DNA of 64,000 bases from Candidatus Geocrenenecus dongiae. GTDB lineage: Archaea; Thermoproteota; Nitrososphaeria_A; Caldarchaeales; Wolframiiraptoraceae. This document shows, one piece after another, positions 13,736 through 60,251 of the stretch (positions are counted from its first letter, which is position 1; every line of letters begins with the position of its first letter). Location: the NCBI GenBank assembly GCA_023267855.1, contig JALNLN010000001.1, positions 23,620 to 87,619 on the forward strand, in the 5' to 3' direction. The position numbers were made by a program, and so were the translations under genes. The notes below the pieces were generated by a model that did not search any database, was not told the DNA's origin, and saw nothing but the letters and a program-made list of their open reading frames with translations.

Positions 13736-13789
13736 AAACCTCCACAAACCTCTCTCCATACATTTTTATTTTTAGTTTTACATAGTATA

Positions 13790-15334
13790 ATGGTGGAGGA
13801 GTTGGAGGAACTCTTACATCTTAAAGGTATAGTGAAAAAGTTCCCAGGAGTAGTTGCTAATGATAATGTTGATTTTACTTTAAGGAAGGGGGAGATACAT
13901 GCTCTACTCGGTGAGAATGGTGCAGGCAAGACAACACTCATGAACATAGTTTACGGACTCTACAAACCAGATGCAGGAGAAATATATGTTGAGGGTAAAC
14001 GTGTAGAGATAAGGTCTCCTAGAGATGCAATTAAACTCGGCATAGGCATGGTTCATCAAAACTTTAAACTCATACCTTCACACACGGTCATGGAAAACAT
14101 TATTCTTGGATTAAAAGATGTAGGGTTTGTGATAAACCGTAAGAAGGTTGGAGAAGAGATAAGGAAACTTTCAGAACAGTATGGCTGGAGGATAGATCCA
14201 TATGTTTATGTCTGGCAGCTCTCAGCTGGAGAGAAACAACAAGTTGAATTACTAAAGATACTTTACAGAAAAGCTAAGATACTGATACTGGACGAACCTA
14301 CATCTGTTCTCACACCACAAGAATGCCGAAACCTATTCCACGCTCTTAGAAAGATGGCGGAGGAAGGTATAGGCATAATCTTCATTACACATAAATTAGA
14401 AGAAGCTTTAAGCATAAGTGATAGAATAACTGTTATGAGAAAAGGGAAAATTGTTGCAACGAAGAATGCTTGGGAGACCAGCATAGAGGAACTTACAAAC
14501 TACATGATCGGAAGACCAGTACTCTTCAAACTAGACAAGAATAAGACAGATTCAAGTGAAGACTTTATCTTAATTAGAAATCTGAAAGCTTATGGAGATA
14601 CTGGAGCTCTCGCATTAAAGAATGTAAACTTAACGATAAGAAAGAATGAGATACTTGGCATAATCGGTGTAACGGGAAATGGGCAACAAGAATTAGCAGA
14701 AGTTCTAGCAGGATTAAGGAAAGCTATTGATGGTCAAGTATTAATAGATGGTATGAATATTTTAAACTATAGTCCTCTAAAATTGATAGAACTTGGAGTT
14801 GCCTACATTCCGCCTGAACCAATAAAGTATGGTATAGCTCCAAATCTTACCATAAGAGATAACCTATTTCTCAAAGCCTACAGATATAAGCCCTACTCCA
14901 GTAGGATATTTATTAACTTAAGAGAAGTAGAGAAGAAAGCGGAAGAAATAATAAGAAGATTTAATGTGGTTTGTCCAAATACTTCTATTAAGGCTAGATC
15001 GCTATCAGGTGGAAATATACAGAGATTAATACTTGCTAGAGAACTTTCAGAATTGATTAATGGCTGGAAGCCTAGATTCATTATAGCAGCTTATCCAACT
15101 AAGGGTTTAGATATATCTGCAGCAGAATTTGTAAATAGAACACTTATAGATTATAGTAAGACTGGCTCAAGTATACTCTACATTACAGAAGATATAGAAG
15201 AAGCTATGATGGTTTGTGACAGGATTGCGGTAATGTATGATGGTAGGATAATGGGTGTCTTCAAACCAGGTGAGGTAAGTATAGAAAAGATAGGGTTAAT
15301 GATGGCTGGCGCAGAAACTCTAACAACATCTTAA
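13790..15334 (+). CDS. ABC transporter ATP-binding protein with two nucleotide-binding domains (BMP/sugar-type)
   Basis: Walker A motifs GENGAGKTT and a second NBD (GVTGNGQQEL) are present, with LSAGEKQQVE and LSGGNIQR signature motifs. The 514 aa length fits a duplicated NBD. Confidence 0.85.
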   Translation: MVEELEELLHLKGIVKKFPGVVANDNVDFTLRKGEIHALLGENGAGKTTLMNIVYGLYKPDAGEIYVEGKRVEIRSPRDAIKLGIGMVHQNFKLIPSHTVMENIILGLKDVGFVINRKKVGEEIRKLSEQYGWRIDPYVYVWQLSAGEKQQVELLKILYRKAKILILDEPTSVLTPQECRNLFHALRKMAEEGIGIIFITHKLEEALSISDRITVMRKGKIVATKNAWETSIEELTNYMIGRPVLFKLDKNKTDSSEDFILIRNLKAYGDTGALALKNVNLTIRKNEILGIIGVTGNGQQELAEVLAGLRKAIDGQVLIDGMNILNYSPLKLIELGVAYIPPEPIKYGIAPNLTIRDNLFLKAYRYKPYSSRIFINLREVEKKAEEIIRRFNVVCPNTSIKARSLSGGNIQRLILARELSELINGWKPRFIIAAYPTKGLDISAAEFVNRTLIDYSKTGSSILYITEDIEEAMMVCDRIAVMYDGRIMGVFKPGEVSIEKIGLMMAGAETLTTS

Positions 15335-21697: not shown

Positions 21698-21987
21698 ACT
21701 TTATACATTTATGCATAAGAAAAATATAAATATTCATTTCTCTCAAAAACATAAGTTAAACTGTTTTTCAAAAAGATGAGAATACTCTTAGTTACATTGA
21801 GATAGGAGAAAATATTATCTGAGTAAATCTCAGACCAACCACTTCCAGAACTCTTCTAACAACATGCACCTTCAACCCAGAGAAGGATCGCCAGGAAGTA
21901 AAATCATAATCTAAGAATATGTTATAAATAGAAAACGTAACAATGAAAAGAAACCGTATTTAAGAAAAATAGATTTGAAGAGTTTAT

Positions 21988-22059
21988 TGGACCGGGCGGG
22001 ATTTGAACCCGCGACCTCCCGCGTGCAAGGCGGGCGATCTCCCACTGATCTACCGGCCC
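21988..22059 (-). tRNA. tRNA-Ala (anticodon UGC)
   Basis: The reverse complement GGGCCGGUAGAUCAGUGGGAGAUCGCCCGCCUUGCACGCGGGAGGUCGCGGGUUCAAAUCCCGCCCGGUCCA folds as a cloverleaf with the G3:U70 Ala identity pair and discriminator A73. The anticodon loop is CUUGCAC. Confidence 0.9.
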
Positions 22060-22524
22060 ACGATAATAATTGTTTAATAAGCTGTATTTAGCTATTTGAC
22101 TTATTTCTTCCTGGCTGATTGTTCCCTATAGAGTTGCCGGTAGGGGGAGCTTCTTTCCAGTATCTTGTCGAGTGCTTCATCTAAAGTCTTCTTTAGTTAG
22201 AACTAAGACTTAAACTCGAGAAATTATTTTTAGAACTCGGTCTGTTGTTGCAATTAAATATTCAAATCCGAATCCTTATGTTACTGTCGTAGTAACAGTT
22301 CTCATCGAACTCGAGTAGTTTTATAACTTCTAAACTATTTCTTAGTTGTTTTACAGCTTGTTACAAAAACTTTTCTTCGCTAGTGGTTGTTTTGATAAAG
22401 ATTGTAGGTGGAGTAGATGTTCTAGTAGTTGTCATGGTCTCTGTAGTTGCATTCATTTTAGTTTTTCAGGAAATAAAAAGAAAAGTAGTACATACTGATT
22501 TTATGTGTTCAGAGTATTGTTTAT

Positions 22525-22547
22525 ATATTGGATGGAGGATCCATCCA
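22525..22547. promoter_or_regulatory. Putative operator palindrome ATATTGGATGGA-GGA-TCCATCCA between a TATA-like box (TTTATATA) and the ATG of the ABC ATPase gene
   Basis: Inverted repeat arms TGGATGGA (22529-22536) and TCCATCCA (22540-22547) flank a 3-nt spacer. The left 12 nt are identical to the second copy at 59201-59212. A TTTATATA box lies immediately upstream and the ATG at 22551 is 3 nt downstream. Confidence 0.4.
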
Positions 22548-22550
22548 TAG

Positions 22551-23327
22551 ATGATCAAAGTTCGGGGTTTGAGTTTTAGTTATGGGGATGTTAAGGTTTT
22601 AGAAGATATTTCTTTCGAGGTTGATTATGGTGAGTTTGTGGGTGTTATTGGTCCGAACGGTTCTGGTAAGACTACTTTATTGAAGTGTCTCTGTAGGCTT
22701 CTTAAACCTTTAGGTGTAGTCTACTTGGATGGTGAGAAGATTTCTGAGATGACTCATGATAAGCTTGCTAGACTTCTCTCATATATTTCTTCTGAAAATG
22801 ATTCTTCAGTAAATAGTATGAGTGTCTTCGATATAGTTTCAACTGGTAGAACACCTTACATGAAGAAGTTTTGGTGGGAGAGTGTTGAAGATGAAGAAAT
22901 AATTTTCAAGTCTATTGAAATTGTAGGACTAAAAGATCTATACAAGAAACGTGTGGGAGAGTTGAGTAGTGGAGAAAAACAGATGGTTAAGATAGCTAGA
23001 GCTCTCTCTCAGTCTCCCAAAATATTCCTCGTAGATGAGCCTACCGTACATCTTGATCTAAAACACCAATTAGAAGTAATGAACATCTTAAAGAACTTAA
23101 CTGTTAGAGAAGGTAAGATAGTTATTGCCGTCCTACATGATCTAAACTTAGCATCCATATACGCTGACAAAATACTAGTACTAAATAATGGTAGGATAAT
23201 CGCGCAGGGAAAACCATATGAAGTCTTAAGAGAAGAACTCTTAGGAAGAGTTTATGGAGTTAAGGTAAGAGTAATTGTTGATTCTGAGTTTGAACAGCCC
23301 ATCATAATACCGTATCTGGGAAGATAG
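22551..23327 (+). CDS. ABC transporter ATP-binding protein, iron-complex/cobalamin type (FepC/BtuD/FhuC-like)
   Basis: Walker A GPNGSGKTTLL, signature LSSGEKQMVKIARAL, Walker B IFLVDEP and an H-loop LHDL are present. There is a single NBD (258 aa). No cognate permease or binding protein lies adjacent. Confidence 0.85.
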   Translation: MIKVRGLSFSYGDVKVLEDISFEVDYGEFVGVIGPNGSGKTTLLKCLCRLLKPLGVVYLDGEKISEMTHDKLARLLSYISSENDSSVNSMSVFDIVSTGRTPYMKKFWWESVEDEEIIFKSIEIVGLKDLYKKRVGELSSGEKQMVKIARALSQSPKIFLVDEPTVHLDLKHQLEVMNILKNLTVREGKIVIAVLHDLNLASIYADKILVLNNGRIIAQGKPYEVLREELLGRVYGVKVRVIVDSEFEQPIIIPYLGR

Positions 23328-26272: not shown

Positions 26273-26345
26273 GGGCCGGTAGATCAGCTGGGAGATCGCC
26301 CGCTTGGCGTGCGGGAGGTCGCGGGTTCAAATCCCGCCCGGTCCA
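26273..26345 (+). tRNA. tRNA-Ala (anticodon GGC)
   Basis: GGGCCGGUAGAUCAGCUGGGAGAUCGCCCGCUUGGCGUGCGGGAGGUCGCGGGUUCAAAUCCCGCCCGGUCCA has G3:U70 and A73, with anticodon loop UUGGCGU. It is nearly identical to the tRNA-Ala(UGC) at 21988-22059 and lies in inverted orientation to it. Confidence 0.9.
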
Positions 26346-40845: not shown

Positions 40846-40981
40846 AACATAACTCAATAACCAGCCTCAAAAATTTCTAACTCTGAAGAAGATCATCAAA
40901 TTAGAAATTTGTTTAGGAAAACATTCCCCTATTAGAGACTATGTTTTTAAGCGACTGATACTAGTAAATGTTTGAAGATTT

Positions 40982-41719
40982 ATGGTTGAGAGAGTTGTAA
41001 CTGGAATACCTGGACTCGATGAGATACTTGGTGGTGGGATTCCAAAGAGAAATGTTGTTCTACTTTCTGGAGGGCCGGGTACTGGTAAATCTATCTTCGG
41101 TCAACAGTATCTCTATAATGGTTTAATGAGAGGTGAGCCCGGTTTACTTGTAGTATTAGAAGAACATCCAGTCCAGGTAAGGATATCTATGTCTCAGTTC
41201 GGCTGGGATGTTAGACCATATGAAGAAAAAGGATCATTTGCTGTCGTAGATGCATTTACTGCAGGTATAGGTGAAGCGGCAAAGAGAGAGAAGTATGTTG
41301 TACGTGATCCAAGCGATTTCCAACTACTGTTAGATGTTTTAAGAGATGCTATAAGAGATGTAAATGCTGAGAGAGCTGTAATAGACTCGGTCTCTACACT
41401 ATACATAACGAAGCCAGCATTAGCTAGAAGCATGGTACTCCAATTAAAGAAGATACTTTCCGGAATGGGCTGTACATCAATCCTCGTTTCACAAGTAAGT
41501 GTAACGGAACGGGGGTTCGGAGGACCTGGAGTAGAGCATGCTGCAGACGGGATTATACGTCTAGATCTAGATGAAGTTAATGGAGAATTGAAGAGAAGTA
41601 TTATAGTTTGGAAGATGCGTGGAACGGCTCACTCTATGAGGAGACACCCATTCATAATAACGAACAAAGGCATAGAGATAAAAGCATCAGAAGTGGTCAG
41701 ATTAATAGAAAGAGATTAA
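40982..41719 (+). CDS. KaiC-like single-domain RecA-superfamily ATPase
   Basis: It has [32 protein letters not shown] (Walker A) and Walker B VIDSVS, at 245 aa. Confidence 0.75.
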
Positions 41720-55652: not shown

Positions 55653-56957
55653 CTAGATCTTTAATTGTTTAGCGAAATCTTCTATTACTTTTAGGAAGTT
55701 CTCTACGTCTTCTAATGTGTGGGAAGCGGAGAGAAATAGATGTAGGCTATCTTCTGTGAGAGCTATTATCTGATTATTTAATAGGTGTTTGAAAAGTTGT
55801 TTAGTTTTTTCTCGATCTTTTTCTAGTTGAGCTGTTTTTACATCTCTAGGCTCGGTTGGTGTGAAATGTATTCCGATTAGTGAGCCTATTCCAGTTGTAT
55901 GGCATGCTATATCTTTTTCTTGGAAGATCTCTCTAACCCCTCTTCTAAACTTTTCTCCTAGTTTTTCTAGATATGTGTAGACCTGCGGATTCTTCTCTAG
56001 TTCTGATAGTAGCGTGTATCCTGCACATGTCATGAGGGGGTTTGCTGAGAATGTTCCACCTTGAAATACTCTCTCAAAGTAATCTGAGTACTTCAATTGA
56101 TCTAATAACTCCATGATTTCTGTTCTTCCACCGAAAGCTCCTACTGCGAATTCCCCTCCACCAACTATCTTTCCAAGAATCGTTATATCTGGTGTAACGT
56201 TATAGATTTTCTGTGCCCCTCCCTCTGAGAGTCTGAAGCCTGTTATAACTTCATCGAAAATCAATACAATATTCTTTTCATTACAGATTTCTCTTAATCC
56301 TTTTAGGAACTCTTTATCTGCAGGTATCATTCCACCTGCTCCAGCTACAGGCTCAACTATGATTCCAGCTATCTCATTATTCTTAACTGCTTTCTCAACA
56401 CTTTCTAGATCATTGTATGGTAGAGTTAATGTATATTTGGTTGATTCTTCAAGGACTCCTGCTGGTAGTTTTCTATATGGTGGTTTCACGGCTATATGTA
56501 AAGCATCATATCCACCATGCCAGCACCCTTCAAACTTGATTATGGTATTCTTCTTCGTATATGCCCTCGCAAGTCTAACAGCATACATATTTGCTTCCGT
56601 GCCACTATTCGTAAACCTAACCATCTCTATACTTGGAACCATACTGCATATCTTCTCCGCCAACTTTACTTCCCACTCATGGGGGAGACCGAAGTGTCCT
56701 CCAAATTCTATCTGCTTTTTTACAGCTTCCACTACAGGTGGATAAGAATGCCCCATCAATTTAGCTCCATGCCCCATCCAGTAATCTGTATACTCATTTC
56801 CATCAATATCCCATATTTTCTGACCTCTTGCCCTAGATACGTAAATAGGGTATGGGTTGAAATATCTTATCGAGTATGAGACACCTCCAGGTAGAACTTT
56901 TCTAGCTCTCTCAAACATTCTACGTGAGGATTCTGTACAAGACACATAGTCAAACAT
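55653..56957 (-). CDS. Class III pyridoxal-phosphate aminotransferase (glutamate-1-semialdehyde 2,1-aminomutase-like)
   Basis: It has the class III aminotransferase fold with the PLP Lys region (DEVITGFR...) and its 434 aa is HemL-like. The function is not proven. Confidence 0.75.
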   Translation of the reverse strand: MFDYVSCTESSRRMFERARKVLPGGVSYSIRYFNPYPIYVSRARGQKIWDIDGNEYTDYWMGHGAKLMGHSYPPVVEAVKKQIEFGGHFGLPHEWEVKLAEKICSMVPSIEMVRFTNSGTEANMYAVRLARAYTKKNTIIKFEGCWHGGYDALHIAVKPPYRKLPAGVLEESTKYTLTLPYNDLESVEKAVKNNEIAGIIVEPVAGAGGMIPADKEFLKGLREICNEKNIVLIFDEVITGFRLSEGGAQKIYNVTPDITILGKIVGGGEFAVGAFGGRTEIMELLDQLKYSDYFERVFQGGTFSANPLMTCAGYTLLSELEKNPQVYTYLEKLGEKFRRGVREIFQEKDIACHTTGIGSLIGIHFTPTEPRDVKTAQLEKDREKTKQLFKHLLNNQIIALTEDSLHLFLSASHTLEDVENFLKVIEDFAKQLKI

Positions 56958-57023: not shown

Positions 57024-58082
57024 TTACAATGTTCTTTGAAACCTTCTGTAGTTTTTAATATGTAGTGCGAGGAAGAATGGGGCTCCTATAGCTGATGTTA
57101 TCGCACCTATTGGTAGTTCTGCGGGAGCTATAGCTATTCTAGCTATTATATCTGCTAGTACAAGTATTGTTGCTCCTGTAAACATGCTTGAAGGTATTAG
57201 GAGCCTATGGTCTTCACCTACAATTAAACGGGAGATGTGGGGGGCGAGGAGACCTACAAAACCTATTACACCATTAAAAGCAACTGTCGTAGAAGTAAGG
57301 AGAGCGAGAGAAGTTATTAAGGAGTATTTGACCAGCTTTACGTTTAAACCTAGTTGACTTGCTTCCTCATCTCCAAGTATTAGCACGTTTAGATTTCTAG
57401 CATTTAAGAGAACGTAAACCATCACTACAATTGAAACCGGTATCAATATGCTTAGGAATCTCCATGAAGCTGTTATTAAGCTTCCGAATAACCAGAAGAT
57501 TATTCCGAAACTCCTACCAGCTGTAAGCGTAATAACTATGGTTGTAGCTGAAGAAAAGAGAAAACCTATAGCTAAACCCGAAAGTAGAAAACTTAAACTA
57601 GATCCTCCACTTAAACGTGTAAATAGTAGTGTTAAGATTAGTGAAAACAATGCTCCCAAGAAAGCTGTTACAGGATAAGCAAAGATGGATGAATGTGATG
57701 TAATTGTTATTCCTAGTAGTATAGATGTTGAGACAGCGAAAACAGCTCCAGAAGAAATACCGCCGATAAACGGATCTACTAGAGGATTCTTAAAGATTCC
57801 CTGCATTACAACCCCAGCAGTTGCCAGAGAAGAACCTATAACAATAGCTGTAATTATCCTAGGTATCCTAGTACTCCAGATAACATCAACTCCATACATA
57901 TTACTACAGAGAAAATTAAGACGTGTTAAGATACATGGTAGATCTTCTATCTTCAAATCAATAACACCAGAAAAGAGAGACAATATACTTGAAGCAAATA
58001 ATGCTAGAAATCCCGTGAAGATTATCAAGATTAAAGTCTTCTTCTTATATTTTATGAAAGATTCTTCCACCATCTCCAGCAC
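57024..58082 (-). CDS. ABC transporter permease, FecCD family (iron-siderophore/cobalamin type)
   Basis: It is polytopic with a FecCD-like pattern (about 9-10 TM). It sits immediately downstream of the binding-protein gene with a 1-nt gap. Confidence 0.85.
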   Translation of the reverse strand: MLEMVEESFIKYKKKTLILIIFTGFLALFASSILSLFSGVIDLKIEDLPCILTRLNFLCSNMYGVDVIWSTRIPRIITAIVIGSSLATAGVVMQGIFKNPLVDPFIGGISSGAVFAVSTSILLGITITSHSSIFAYPVTAFLGALFSLILTLLFTRLSGGSSLSFLLSGLAIGFLFSSATTIVITLTAGRSFGIIFWLFGSLITASWRFLSILIPVSIVVMVYVLLNARNLNVLILGDEEASQLGLNVKLVKYSLITSLALLTSTTVAFNGVIGFVGLLAPHISRLIVGEDHRLLIPSSMFTGATILVLADIIARIAIAPAELPIGAITSAIGAPFFLALHIKNYRRFQRTL

Positions 58083-58083
58083 G

Positions 58084-59202
58084 TTAACTTGAACCTATCT
58101 CTGATATAGAGTATTCTAGATATTTCCTATAATCACCGCCTAAAACATTGGGTATCTTTACATTGAATAATTCTGGATAAAGTATCTTAGCTAGTATCTC
58201 TACTGCTTCATGCGCTCTCGGCCCAGGTCTTGCAAATATGTTTTCAGCTTGATCATATAGTATATAGATTCTTTCACTCTTTACTGCTTCGACTTTATCT
58301 ACTCCAGGCAGGTTTCTAAGTTTTGCAATAATTTCTTCTGGACTCATTCCAAGCATTCCCGAGAGTATGATTATGGTTTGCGGGTTTTTCGCAACTATGA
58401 CTTCAGGGCTTGTCATGAAGAAGCCTTCTGCATCACCCATAACATTGTATCCATCTGCGGCTCCTATCAAGTCATCTATGAATGTATTTCTTCCAGCAGT
58501 CCATATAGGTTCAATCCAGCCAATATAGAGAACACTAGTCTTCTCTCTTACAACGTTAAGCTTAGACTGTAAATTACTCAAAGTATTCCTCATACGGTTC
58601 ACGATCTCGAATGCCTTCTCCTTTACACCCATTATCTCCCCAATCAATATCATCCCATTGTAGATGTCTGTGAGTGATGCTGCATGTAAGGCGACGACCT
58701 TCAATCCTTTCTCTTCTAGTATAGCTACATAGTTGCCCTGTAATCCAGCATCTATAAAGACTATATCTGGTGAGAGTGAAACAATCTTCTCTATACTTAA
58801 AGTTACAACACCTCCAACATCTTCTATCACGCCTCTCTGCTTAAGTGTCAGTAACTCTGGAGGATAATCGCTATAACTATCTACTCCAACAATCTTTTCT
58901 AGTAATCCTAAGTATGCGAGCATCTCAGTTATACTTGGAGCGCATGAAACAATCTTCAAAGGCTCCTTCTCGATTACAACCTCCCTACCCATAAAATCGA
59001 TAAACTTCTTTGGATAAACTTCCACACCAACCTGAACTACAGAAGAAGTAGAAGTTACAGTATACGTCACGGTATGGTAAGATGTAAAAGTCGTTGTCGA
59101 AATAATAGTTTGAGAACTCGATAATAAAGCAAACTGAACACCATTAAAAATCAGGCTTAGAATTAACAGAGAAAGAAGTATCACAATTTTCCTTTGAATC
59201 AT
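58084..59202 (-). CDS. ABC transporter substrate-binding protein, class III/type 8 (iron-siderophore/cobalamin-type). Proposed start at the Met at 59202; the track ORF begins at a TTG at 59241
   Basis: After the Met at 59202 comes a signal/anchor peptide (MIQRKIVILLSLLILSLIF), a Thr/Ser-rich linker and a FepB/BtuF-like fold. Upstream codons of the longer ORF coincide with a 27-nt palindrome (see the regulatory feature). Confidence 0.8.
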   Translation of the reverse strand: MIQRKIVILLSLLILSLIFNGVQFALLSSSQTIISTTTFTSYHTVTYTVTSTSSVVQVGVEVYPKKFIDFMGREVVIEKEPLKIVSCAPSITEMLAYLGLLEKIVGVDSYSDYPPELLTLKQRGVIEDVGGVVTLSIEKIVSLSPDIVFIDAGLQGNYVAILEEKGLKVVALHAASLTDIYNGMILIGEIMGVKEKAFEIVNRMRNTLSNLQSKLNVVREKTSVLYIGWIEPIWTAGRNTFIDDLIGAADGYNVMGDAEGFFMTSPEVIVAKNPQTIIILSGMLGMSPEEIIAKLRNLPGVDKVEAVKSERIYILYDQAENIFARPGPRAHEAVEILAKILYPELFNVKIPNVLGGDYRKYLEYSISEIGSS

Positions 59203-59227
59203 ATTGGATGGATGATCCATCCAATAT
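59201..59227. promoter_or_regulatory. Putative operator palindrome ATATTGGATGGA-TGA-TCCATCCAATAT overlapping the proposed start codon of the ABC binding-protein gene
   Basis: It is a perfect 12-bp inverted repeat with a 3-nt spacer. A TATA-like ATAAATAT overlaps the promoter-proximal arm on the minus strand. The 12-nt half-site is identical to the one at 22525-22536. Confidence 0.4.
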
Positions 59228-59458
59228 TTATCCATTACCAAATTGTGGAGAGAGAAGTATTACTAACATGAATCCATAATTTTATTAGGTTAAGTACTGA
59301 ATTTTGGAAAAACCTAATGTATGGATTTACCGTTAGTTTCTATGTTTACTGATTTTTGTTGAAGATTTAACTTTACTTAAGATCGAGGTCTTTCAGATTG
59401 ATACGATCACATGGATGAGGTAAGAATTATTAAGAAGTGGTGGAGAATATTGTACATG

Positions 59459-59779
59459 ATGGAGTTTATCCAGGTAATAACTACAATTGACAGTAAAGAG
59501 AAAGCTGAGGAAATCTGTAGAATACTTCTTGAAGAAAGATTAGCGGCCTGTGTACAGATAATTGGTCCAGTAGATAGTTTCTACTGGTGGAAAGGAGAGA
59601 TTGAGCATAGTAGAGAATGGATATGTTTAATAAAATCTAGTAGAGAAGTTTATGGAGATTTGGAAAAGAAGATCTTGGAGCACCACCCATACGAGGTACC
59701 TGAGATAATAGTACTTCCAGTAATAGAAGGATATCGGAAATATCTAGATTGGTTGAGTAGTGAGTTAAAAAAAGAGTAA
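59459..59779 (+). CDS. cutA: Divalent-cation tolerance protein CutA
   Basis: The CutA1 pattern (IQVITTIDSKEKAEEICRILLEERLAACVQI; W.GEIE...E..LI.K; HPYEVPEI) is present. The likely start is the Met at 59459 (MEFIQV...); the track ORF begins at 59411. Confidence 0.75.
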   Translation: MEFIQVITTIDSKEKAEEICRILLEERLAACVQIIGPVDSFYWWKGEIEHSREWICLIKSSREVYGDLEKKILEHHPYEVPEIIVLPVIEGYRKYLDWLSSELKKE

Positions 59780-59789
59780 GTGGAGATGG

Positions 59790-60251
59790 TTAAACTTTTT
59801 CAAGTTTCTCCATGAGCTGCTTTAAAGATTCCTTAACATCTTTTAGAGTGTTTTCTAGTATCTCTATCTTCTTCTTTTCTTCTTCAAGTTTCCTCTTAAG
59901 TTCTTCCAGCTCCTTCGTGGATGGAATCTCGATCTTTATACCTTCTCTTAAGAATCTTTCATATGTTTGTCGGATTAATTGACCTGCTTTCGTTTTTCCA
60001 GTTAGATGGTTACGAATTGTTGCTTCACTTCTACCGATATCTTCAGCTATCTGTGTTATAGTCATTTTTGCTTTCTCCCGGGCTAATGCTGCAGCTGCAA
60101 CTGCTAGTGAATCTACCCATGTAAGTCTTTCAGCAGGATTCTTTAGTTCCTCAATTACTTCTGGACTGAGGATTGTACTTATCAAGAGAGCTGTCTCAAG
60201 TTTATGTATCTGTTCTCTCCCAATAGGTGTTAAAGAAATTTCCTCACTCAT
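59790..60251 (-). CDS. HTH-domain protein with a C-terminal coiled coil (putative transcription regulator)
   Basis: It has a central HTH-like segment (MTITQIAEDIGRSEATIRNHL) and a C-terminal charged heptad-repeat region (KELEELKRKLEEEKKKIEILENTLKDVKESLKQLMEKLEK). Confidence 0.45.
   Translation of the reverse strand: MSEEISLTPIGREQIHKLETALLISTILSPEVIEELKNPAERLTWVDSLAVAAAALAREKAKMTITQIAEDIGRSEATIRNHLTGKTKAGQLIRQTYERFLREGIKIEIPSTKELEELKRKLEEEKKKIEILENTLKDVKESLKQLMEKLEKV

Follow-up and report, generated by a model that had tools for sequence, protein, structure and literature searches.

A palindromic operator shared by the two halves of a split BtuFCD-type importer in Candidatus Geocrenenecus dongiae, and its probable place in an archaeal vitamin B12 regulon

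We analyzed a 64,000-nucleotide (nt) stretch of contig JALNLN010000001.1 from the archaeon Candidatus Geocrenenecus dongiae (the whole stretch is referred to as the window), in which one palindromic element was present at the promoters of two distant loci: a lone ATP-binding cassette (ABC) ATPase gene, and an operon encoding a substrate-binding protein and a membrane permease. In the reading that we favor, to which we assign a probability of about 0.72, the two palindromes would be operators of one dimeric factor at both halves of a BtuFCD-type importer, and part of a pan-archaeal vitamin B12 regulon, the likeliest regulator being a family of winged helix-turn-helix (wHTH) proteins with a DUF4443 domain. 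The features are listed in Table 1.

Site 1 read directly as ATATTGGATGGAGGATCCATCCA, followed by TAG and ATG 22551 (with its promoter context, GTTTATATATTGGATGGAGGATCCATCCATAG, ATG 22551 being next), and site 2, on the minus strand with its context, as GGATAAATATTGGATGGATCATCCATCCAAT, with ATG 59202 next. Site 2 lay within a perfect 27-nt palindrome, ATATTGGATGGAT-G-ATCCATCCAATAT (59201-59227), its right end on the minus strand being 2 nt ahead of ATG 59202; in site 1, both 7-nt core arms were perfect and the asymmetry was confined to the spacer. The pattern ATATTGGATGGA-N3-TCCATCCA occurred in the window only at 22525-22547 and 59201-59227. A search for ATATTGGATGGANNNTCCATCCA with up to 3 mismatches returned 22525-22547 (plus strand) and 59201-59223/59205-59227 (both strands) and nothing else in the window, the expectation from shuffled sequences being 0.00 matches. 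When the 19-nt core TGGATGGNNN..TCCATCCA was searched with up to 3 mismatches, the only extra matches were at 14182 and 59918, with 3 mismatches each and both intragenic. The dyad symmetry covered a 19-bp palindromic core, TGGATGGAT-N-ATCCATCCA, a length within the range of about 15-20 bp considered for a dyad. On the comparison with orthologous promoters, the functional core is TGGATGG-N5-CCATCCA, with TGGATGGAT-N-ATCCATCCA as its ideal form: the ATAT prefix was not conserved in the promoters of the ATPase orthologues (TTTATA-TGGATGG), so that it appears to belong to the TATA box and the core is shorter. The palindromes are almost certainly real promoter operators.

The distance from the center of the TATA-like box to the A of the ATG was 27.5 nt at site 1 and 25.5 nt at site 2, and the two cores together spanned -22 to -3; binding-protein orthologues carried TTAAATAT or ATAAATAT at the corresponding TATA position. 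Since this spacing is the usual distance between TATA box and transcription start in archaea, both transcripts are probably leaderless. An earlier first-pass annotation of the window had claimed the same palindrome at both loci, each time flanked by a TATA-like box and, 2-3 nt on, a start codon, with leaderless geometry and a position suited to a dimeric repressor. The copies were indeed identical, the only ones in the window, and with none expected by chance; the order and spacing held at both promoters, and the placement, as placement only, is consistent with such a repressor. The palindrome of that annotation also stood, except for its ATAT prefix.

The operator core contains an ATG (TGG-ATG-GAT-NAT-CCA-TCC-A; 59218-59220 in the window). 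Wherever this ATG is in frame with the gene, gene callers take it as the start codon, and the predicted protein acquires a false N-terminus, MD(N/Y/H/D)PS. The likely start of the binding protein is ATG 59202 (MIQRK), while public calls use ATG 59220 inside the operator, giving a protein of 378 amino acids (P0001). In our own open reading frame (ORF) calls, the in-core ATG was the start of about 30 of the 102 flanking genes, and the same was seen at L016 4001 and in many of L220-L337 (numbers with L denote the loci compared here). At the ATPase promoter, a 55-amino-acid hydrophobic ORF annotated in some assemblies (22383-22550) crosses the operator and is probably spurious; a short hydrophobic frame was common to L016 and L018. 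About 460 nt without a convincing gene separate this promoter from tRNA-Ala(TGC) (21987-22060), and a tRNA was also found upstream of the ATPase in the relatives L014 and L016. tRNA-Ala(GGC) is located at 26273-26345.

Assignment of the gene products supports the two loci as complementary parts of one FecCD/BtuCD-type importer. By Pfam, all parts of a type II importer were present in the window (Peripla_BP_2, FecCD, and FecE/BtuD-like ATPase), and the only further ABC ATPase, at 13736-15331, was a duplicated sugar-type protein. These assignments upheld the first-pass view of the ATPase at 22551 as an orphan and of the binding protein and FecCD permease, 35 kb off, as a pair without an ATPase; both genes of the latter locus had been described correctly, but the third operon gene, the HemL-like aminotransferase (56957-55653), had been omitted. 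This gene was the third gene of the binding-protein operon in all close relatives. The best NCBIfam matches of the ATPase were heme, FecE, and corrinoid ATPases, all under the equivalog cut-offs. Among the substrate models, BtuC and BtuF were among the best matches, also under the curated cut-offs, with heme, Fe-citrate, and F420 models scoring alike. ATPase 22551 probably energizes the permease at 57024-58082, as suggested by shared regulation and by contiguous operons elsewhere.

The physical split and the operator at each half, both proposed by the first-pass annotation, were also kept in relatives. The window DNA was 64-78% identical to a contig of Candidatus Geocrenenecus huangii, and the closest binding-protein homologues carried the labels Aigarchaeota or Caldarchaeales. 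The ATPase sequence was unchanged on 24 hot-spring assembly contigs, where its gene always lay between an aldolase gene and the genes for Pus10 and SRP54 and never had a permease gene nearby; orthologues with 59-66% identity kept the order ATPase-Pus10-SRP54, again without a permease. The binding-protein loci of relatives (52-85% protein identity) kept the order divergent CutA, binding protein, FecCD, and aminotransferase, without an ATPase, and in GCA_026413845.1 both transporter halves were found on one contig, about 20 kb apart. The operator was present at binding-protein loci (L007, L008, L011, and L013) and at ATPase loci (L014-L019), i.e., upstream of the orthologues of both genes. The binding-protein promoters of relatives read TAAATAT-TGGATGG(A/T)T(C/G)ATCCATCCA, 2 nt, and ATG, and their ATPase promoters TTTATA-TGGATGG-N5-CCATCC(A/G), 8-12 nt before ATG. 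The intergenic DNA around the binding-protein operators had diverged to the point that no alignment was possible by eye, and conservation of the motif within diverged flanks was observed at orthologous promoters of the binding protein (L007, L008, L011, and L013) and of the ATPase (L014, L016, and L018). Elsewhere, both in further Caldarchaeales (Caldarchaeum among them) and in other phyla, all three transporter genes formed one operon under the motif (L236, L246/L283, L252, and L313); in L290, the ATPase gene followed the binding-protein and permease genes and was not joined to them by the operon rule used. Since the ATPase of the window was 35-43% identical to those of the motif-controlled btuFCD-like operons, the one-operon arrangement elsewhere suggests that the window represents a derived state, in which the ATPase gene would have been relocated, its own operator being either retained or acquired anew.

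The motif was traced beyond these relatives in two ways. In a metagenome search seeded with an alignment of the binding protein, and with the core accepted at up to 1 mismatch, the core was found directly upstream of binding-protein homologues that were only 34-47% identical (L143, L146, L148, L149, L155, and L156). In L148, and in L183 with a 2-mismatch copy, the site lay between cobD (threonine-phosphate decarboxylase) or a cbiB-like gene and a btuF-like gene, and a CbiZ-like gene, assigned by reading N-terminal sequences, was near the site in L149. The second search used the pattern TGGATGGAKNATCCATCCA against 185,579 species genomes (596 Gb), the species of the window not being included, and yielded at least 118 loci; all figures on archaeal and bacterial sites given here refer to the matches listed. 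Judged by record title and sequence context, 91 of the 118 listed matches were archaeal and 27 bacterial. The archaeal ones came from Bathyarchaeia, Korarchaeia, Methanomethylicia, Methanomassiliicoccales, Methanofastidiosia, and Hecatellales, from Nitrososphaeria (Nitrososphaerales, Nitrosopumilales, and Conexivisphaerales), and from Caldarchaeales (Wolframiiraptor, Caldarchaeum, Geocrenenecus, Terraquivivens, and Calditenuaceae). With equal base frequencies, about 35 matches to TGGATGGAKNATCCATCCA are expected by chance in the whole, mostly bacterial collection: the bacterial matches are in line with chance, and for archaea the enrichment is well above tenfold. A search of viral contigs with the 14-base core gave at least 120 matches, a number at chance level. 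Sites deep in long ORFs made up 16 of the 27 listed bacterial sites versus 8 of the 91 listed archaeal ones, and the motif was not the dispersed repeat against which the first-pass annotation had asked for a check. When 88 of the listed archaeal sites were oriented by their A/T-rich side, a TATA-like box was found within about 10 nt (-1 to -12) of one arm, and in most of them an ATG 0-16 nt past the other arm. The TATA-operator-ATG layout of the window is the general layout of the archaeal sites.

The genes next to these sites were identified by our own ORF calls, protein clustering, and Pfam searches with cluster representatives, singleton ORFs being left unannotated. Corrinoid-type genes were found downstream at 58 of the 91 listed archaeal sites, in agreement with the first-pass idea of a regulon-defining operator. 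At 32 loci, the gene product was a membrane protein of about 190 amino acids resembling the S-component of energy-coupling factor (ECF) transporters (weak PF07155), in most cases accompanied by a DUF4430 protein with a membrane anchor (about 150 amino acids); DUF4430 is the transcobalamin C-terminal domain (PMC4350170). BtuF-like binding proteins were present in 13 listed loci, with FecCD permeases and ATPases, and in Nitrososphaerales a duplicated ABC ATPase, a CbiQ-like T component, and a 243-amino-acid membrane protein were under the motif. Salvage operons of the type ApgM-like-CobD-CbiB-CbiZ followed the motif in L269 and L313. In L246 and L283 (Candidatus Caldarchaeum sp.), a 253-amino-acid DUF71 protein was encoded divergently from btuFCD with the operator in common, and contained ENGEFH, the signature of the proposed B12-salvage DUF71 subfamily (PMC3541065). 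The B12-independent class III ribonucleotide reductase NrdD and its activase NrdG were encoded downstream of the site in L256, L258, L276, L277, and L247. Bacterial B12-riboswitch regulons comprise uptake (btuFCD), salvage/biosynthesis, and B12-independent isozymes such as NrdDG. Since the archaeal set of uptake, salvage, and B12-independent isozyme genes has the same content, control by iron or heme would be difficult to square with it, and these gene associations make it quite likely that the regulon is of the vitamin B12/corrinoid type. The first-pass suggestion of a metal- or cofactor-responsive system was accordingly retained for the cofactor and dropped for iron, no iron family being clustered with the sites among the multi-member families annotated.

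Several loci contained further genes. In L231, L248, L288, L318, L333, and L336 (Nitrososphaerales and relatives), the site lay between two divergent units, one encoding a membrane protein without a Pfam match (148-244 amino acids as called, usually about 243) and the other the duplicated ABC ATPase and CbiQ-like T component; these units may be an undescribed ECF-type corrinoid importer. In Bathyarchaeia (L228, L254, L261, L278, L287, L311, and L331), secreted alpha/alpha-toroid proteins of about 500 amino acids, resembling prenyltransferase/squalene cyclase and in some cases with PKD domains, were under the motif; in 4 of these seven loci they were accompanied by DUF4430 proteins, a pair that resembles the two domains of transcobalamin-type B12 binders. 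A gene of the cofactor-independent phosphoglycerate-mutase/metalloenzyme family (400-420 amino acids) stood at or near the head of motif-controlled CobD-CbiB-CbiZ operons (L269 2109-3341; L313, 419 amino acids; L252; L148), and this ApgM-like gene may supply a missing nucleotide-loop assembly step in archaea. In L247 (1945-5147; Candidatus Geocrenenecus huangii), the operator was followed by a 76-amino-acid remnant (an ECF-S-like N-terminus fused to a DUF4430 piece), nrdD, and nrdG; the remnant has the appearance of a degraded transporter gene, with its promoter now serving the reductase. In Methanomassiliicoccales (L232, L237, L243, L250, L267, L272, and L301), the palindrome was located 113-115 nt upstream of mcrB and 6-7 nt upstream of AAGCTTATAT, an element resembling a B recognition element (BRE) and TATA box. 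This is an activator-type position, at the methyl-coenzyme M reductase operon of methanogens that depend on corrinoid methyltransferases.

The mechanism that we propose for the window is as follows. One dimeric transcription factor would bind both palindromes. Since the operator takes up the space of some 20 bp that separates the TATA box from the start of a probably leaderless transcript, a dimer bound at -22 to -3 would exclude RNA polymerase, blocking its recruitment and probably the binding of TBP/TFB as well. The two halves, i.e., ATPase 22551 and the operon of the binding protein, permease, and HemL-like gene (59202-55653), would be co-repressed, and the distant ATPase would work with the permease. 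A corrinoid (vitamin B12 or other) would be the co-repressor, so that a plentiful supply of the cofactor would switch off the genes for uptake, for salvage, and for the ribonucleotide reductase that works without B12; co-repression of the HemL-like gene may act as feedback on tetrapyrrole supply.

As for the regulator, a profile search detected a wHTH-DUF4443 gene in 15 of the 91 listed 8-kb blocks; the remaining loci covered, from which those of the viral scan were excluded, had none. The gene, encoding about 200 amino acids, was divergent from the regulated operon with the site in common in L240, L264, L270, L275, L308, and L328, and was the third gene of the operon in L260, L274, L294, and L332, a position after ECF-S and DUF4430 that was frequent in Bathyarchaeia and Korarchaeia; in L226 and L317 it had the orientation of the operon and was located some two genes further downstream. 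For a gene occurring about once per genome, the expected frequency in a given 8-kb block would be well under 1%. Since it was observed in 15 of 91 blocks, and often shared the operator, the pattern is the signature of an autoregulated local repressor. The protein consists of a winged helix (PH0730-like_N/CggR_N) and DUF4443 (PF14544 plus PF22167/PF21715), and matched PDB 2P8T ('hypothetical protein PH0730'), a structure solved in 2007; no NCBIfam name was found for it. The family is small: a HMMER search gave 725 family clusters at 50% identity, among whose names Thaumarchaeota/Nitrososphaerota, Helarchaeota, and Sifarchaeia were given and no Caldarchaeales label was found, and a word-indexed protein search with one DUF4443 query gave 3 close relatives only. 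An AlphaFold2 model built from this 3-sequence alignment had a predicted local distance difference test (pLDDT) score of 47.7. From its genomic position, the DUF4443 family has somewhat better than even odds of being the regulator in general, and for this genome the odds appear evenly balanced.

Several points weigh against the favored reading. No DUF4443 homologue was found in the 64-kb window or in the 10 kb past its right end (L338), a region in which no extra operator site was found either. The DUF4443 sequences contained no recognizable B12-binding signature: there was no conserved DxHxxG, and the only well-conserved histidine was N-terminal. The seven sites before mcrBDGA lie upstream of the TATA element and fit poorly with a simple uptake repressor. 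Moreover, 17 of the 91 listed sites had no called neighbor and 9 had unrelated genes, as judged from our crude gene calls, and the scan pattern was near-perfect, leaving weak sites outside its reach and the regulon of this species not enumerated.

Because DUF4443 was not seen in any listed Caldarchaeales block, the operator of this order might instead be bound by the 153-amino-acid helix-turn-helix (HTH) protein at 60251-59790 (TIGR03879), perhaps together with a KaiC-like ATPase. In Caldarchaeales, homologues of this protein adjoin motif loci, and two arrangements were seen: in L221 (Wolframiiraptor), on the same strand after ECF-S, DUF4430, and KaiC-like genes; and in the window, L222, and L330, convergent with a CutA gene that is transcribed away from the regulated operon. 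L008 carried a KaiC-like gene and an unannotated 163-amino-acid gene at the corresponding position. However, Caldarchaeales, Bathyarchaeia, Korarchaeia, and relatives of the ammonia oxidizers all have the identical operator, which argues for a single orthologous regulator, whereas the TIGR03879 protein was restricted to Caldarchaeales loci (3 of the 91 listed, and the window) and absent from all listed loci outside that order; on both counts it was rated lower. In addition, L011/L299 had the site and CutA without such an HTH gene nearby, the family is defined by adjacency to KaiC and not to B12 genes, and the KaiC-like gene of the window (about 40976-41716, plus strand) lies 18 kb from the HTH gene. 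We therefore consider this protein an unlikely binder in comparison with DUF4443.

The near-equal scores of the transporter parts on heme, ferric-citrate, and corrinoid models, none of which reached an equivalog cut-off, would also fit an importer of iron chelate or heme under a DtxR/Fur/MDR1-type repressor that responds to iron, heme, or another metal; the HemL-like operon gene would suit heme/tetrapyrrole control as well. The genes at the 91 listed archaeal sites were nevertheless B12-specific (DUF4430, CbiZ, CbiB, CobD, DUF71-B12, and NrdDG). Among the multi-member ORF clusters at these sites, singletons being unannotated, there was no iron-uptake or iron-storage family, and an iron box was rejected on this basis; no DtxR- or Fur-family gene clustered with the listed sites, whereas DUF4443 did. 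The motif is also not known to resemble the published DtxR/IdeR or Fur boxes. Control by iron or heme is thus improbable.

It is still less probable that the palindrome functions at the RNA level, as a 5'-leader hairpin that would affect translation or stability and sequester the start codon, and not as a DNA operator. The arms could form 7-9 base pairs, there is an overlap between site 2 and the start codon, and a promoter further upstream would be conceivable. On the other hand, both arm sequences were invariant across phyla, and the variants CCATCCG, CCAACCA, CCAGCCA, and AGGTTGG disrupt pairing without a compensating change, on which grounds the hairpin was rejected; the TATA box about 26 nt before ATG would also place the palindrome upstream of the transcript start. 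A cobalamin riboswitch (RF00174) was rejected as well, since an Rfam scan of the whole window at the gathering threshold returned 4 tRNAs only. Coincidence, a dispersed repeat, or a mobile-element remnant without a regulatory role, which might be suggested by there being only two window copies and by the simple (TGGA)2 repeat from which the motif is built, has a negligible probability in view of the zero chance matches expected, the retention of the motif at orthologous promoters with diverged flanks, the archaeal enrichment of more than an order of magnitude, the low intragenic share given above, the fixed promoter geometry, and the consistent gene association.

The operator system with DUF4443 as its likeliest regulator has counterparts of several kinds. 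To our knowledge, archaea make, salvage, and depend on corrinoids yet lack cobalamin riboswitches, and the regulation of their B12 economy is essentially undescribed, a computational prediction from 2003 being the sole lead known to us. In that work, Rodionov and colleagues reportedly predicted a 'CBL-box' as the signal of a hypothetical archaeal B12 regulator. Like the CBL-box, which reportedly lies upstream of archaeal cobalamin transport/biosynthesis genes and was proposed to have an unknown protein as its reader, the present motif TGGATGGAT-N-ATCCATCCA is a DNA signal; the likeness concerns this general description, not the consensus or the species list. Beyond the CBL-box, to which no regulator protein is known to have been assigned, our analysis adds phyla whose genomes date from after 2003, targets of the NrdDG, ECF-S/DUF4430, and mcr types, the split transporter, and a candidate regulator family. 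The logic is equivalent to that of the cobalamin riboswitch regulon, in which uptake, salvage/biosynthesis, and B12-independent isozymes are under cofactor control; the riboswitch is an RNA in the 5' leader, whereas here a DNA palindrome lies between the TATA box and the start of apparently leaderless transcripts. MDR1, Phr, LrpA, and TrmB are dimeric HTH proteins that bind a palindrome overlapping or just downstream of the TATA box and covering the start, and block recruitment of RNA polymerase. They differ from the present candidate in family and sequence, and the mechanism here is assigned by position only. BtuFCD/FecBCDE type II importers consist of the gene types matched by the Peripla_BP_2, FecCD, and FecE/BtuD-like ATPase genes of the window; unlike in those systems, the ATPase lies 35 kb from its partners with its own operator copy, and cobalamin as the substrate is not established by sequence. 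The riboflavin regulator RbkR (PMC5397151), one of the archaeal vitamin regulators discovered through comparative genomics, also uses a dedicated protein and a palindromic operator in place of a bacterial riboswitch, in major archaeal lineages and often beside its targets. It differs from our candidate in the vitamin, in the protein (wHTH-DUF4443 here, a kinase fusion there), and in the operator. A metabolite-responsive archaeal repressor with its operator is an already known kind of system. In the literature searched, no description of the operator or of a DUF4443 regulator was found, and the motif strings were absent from any relevant paper; DUF4443 appeared in no paper, and PH0730 only in a table of transcription-factor families. 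The wider result appears to be undescribed in the searchable literature, the regulator assignment being its most novel part.

The neighborhood of the binding-protein operon is included in Table 1. The CutA arrangement of the window recurred in L008, L011, L222, and L330, and an apparent CutA deletion in L339 was actually a run of N at a scaffold gap. The TIGR03879 HTH gene, usually with a KaiC-like ATPase gene, was a recurrent neighbor of CutA and B12 transporter loci in Caldarchaeales (L221, L222, L330, and L008).

Table 1. Features at and around the two operator loci of the window (positions are those of the window)
Feature	Position	Strand	Remarks
Operator site 1, core TGGATGG-AGGAT-CCATCCA	22529..22547	.	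-22 to -4 relative to ATG 22551; core kept at ATPase orthologue promoters L014, L015-17, L018-19
Operator site 2, core TGGATGG-ATGAT-CCATCCA	59205..59223	.	-21 to -3 relative to ATG 59202 (minus strand); kept at L007, L008-10, L011-13, L140, L330
Putative TATA-like box TTTATATA, ATPase promoter	22520..22527	+	1 nt before left arm, overlaps ATAT prefix; predicted from consensus match
Putative TATA-like box ATAAATAT, binding-protein operon promoter	59224..59231	-	overlaps outer palindrome arm; predicted
Orphan ABC ATPase, FecE/BtuD/heme type, 258 amino acids	22551..23327	+	Pfam ABC_tran PF00005, 2e-29
Substrate-binding protein, BtuF/IsdE-like	58084..59202	-	Peripla_BP_2 PF01497, 4e-24; N-terminal membrane anchor, Ser/Thr-rich linker
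FecCD-family permease	57024..58082	-	PF01032, 8e-83; best NCBIfam match BtuC
HemL-like class-III aminotransferase, third operon gene	55653..56957	-	NF000818, 426 bits vs cut-off 398 (glutamate-1-semialdehyde 2,1-aminomutase subfamily)
CutA1 gene, divergent from binding-protein operon	59411..59779	+	start 184 nt from palindrome
HTH protein of 153 amino acids, TIGR03879 'near KaiC' regulatory domain	59790..60251	-	77.8 bits vs cut-off 65.1

The outcome of this analysis is an operator sharply defined over 19 bp, a probable regulon of coherent content, and, as candidate regulator, a family for which a crystal structure exists; among the groups bearing the motif, Nitrososphaerales and Methanomassiliicoccales have cultured members. 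The motif explains a recurrent start-codon error behind false MDNPS/MDYPS N-termini, and flags B12-linked genes of unknown function, i.e., those for the ECF-S-like, DUF4430, alpha/alpha-toroid, and ApgM-like proteins and the 243-amino-acid membrane protein of ammonia oxidizers. It also indicates that a split ABC importer can stay co-regulated, with its own operator copy at each half. Whether DUF4443 is the missing archaeal B12 sensor-regulator, with TGGATGGAT-N-ATCCATCCA as its operator, is in our estimate a matter of equal chances; bound between the TATA box and the start, such a protein would act as a repressor of the uptake, salvage, and NrdDG genes, and from a position upstream of BRE/TATA it may activate mcr in methyl-reducing methanogens that rely on corrinoid proteins. 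If true, it would be the protein counterpart of the cobalamin riboswitch, ranging from Korarchaeia and Bathyarchaeia to the relatives of ammonia oxidizers and Methanomassiliicoccales.

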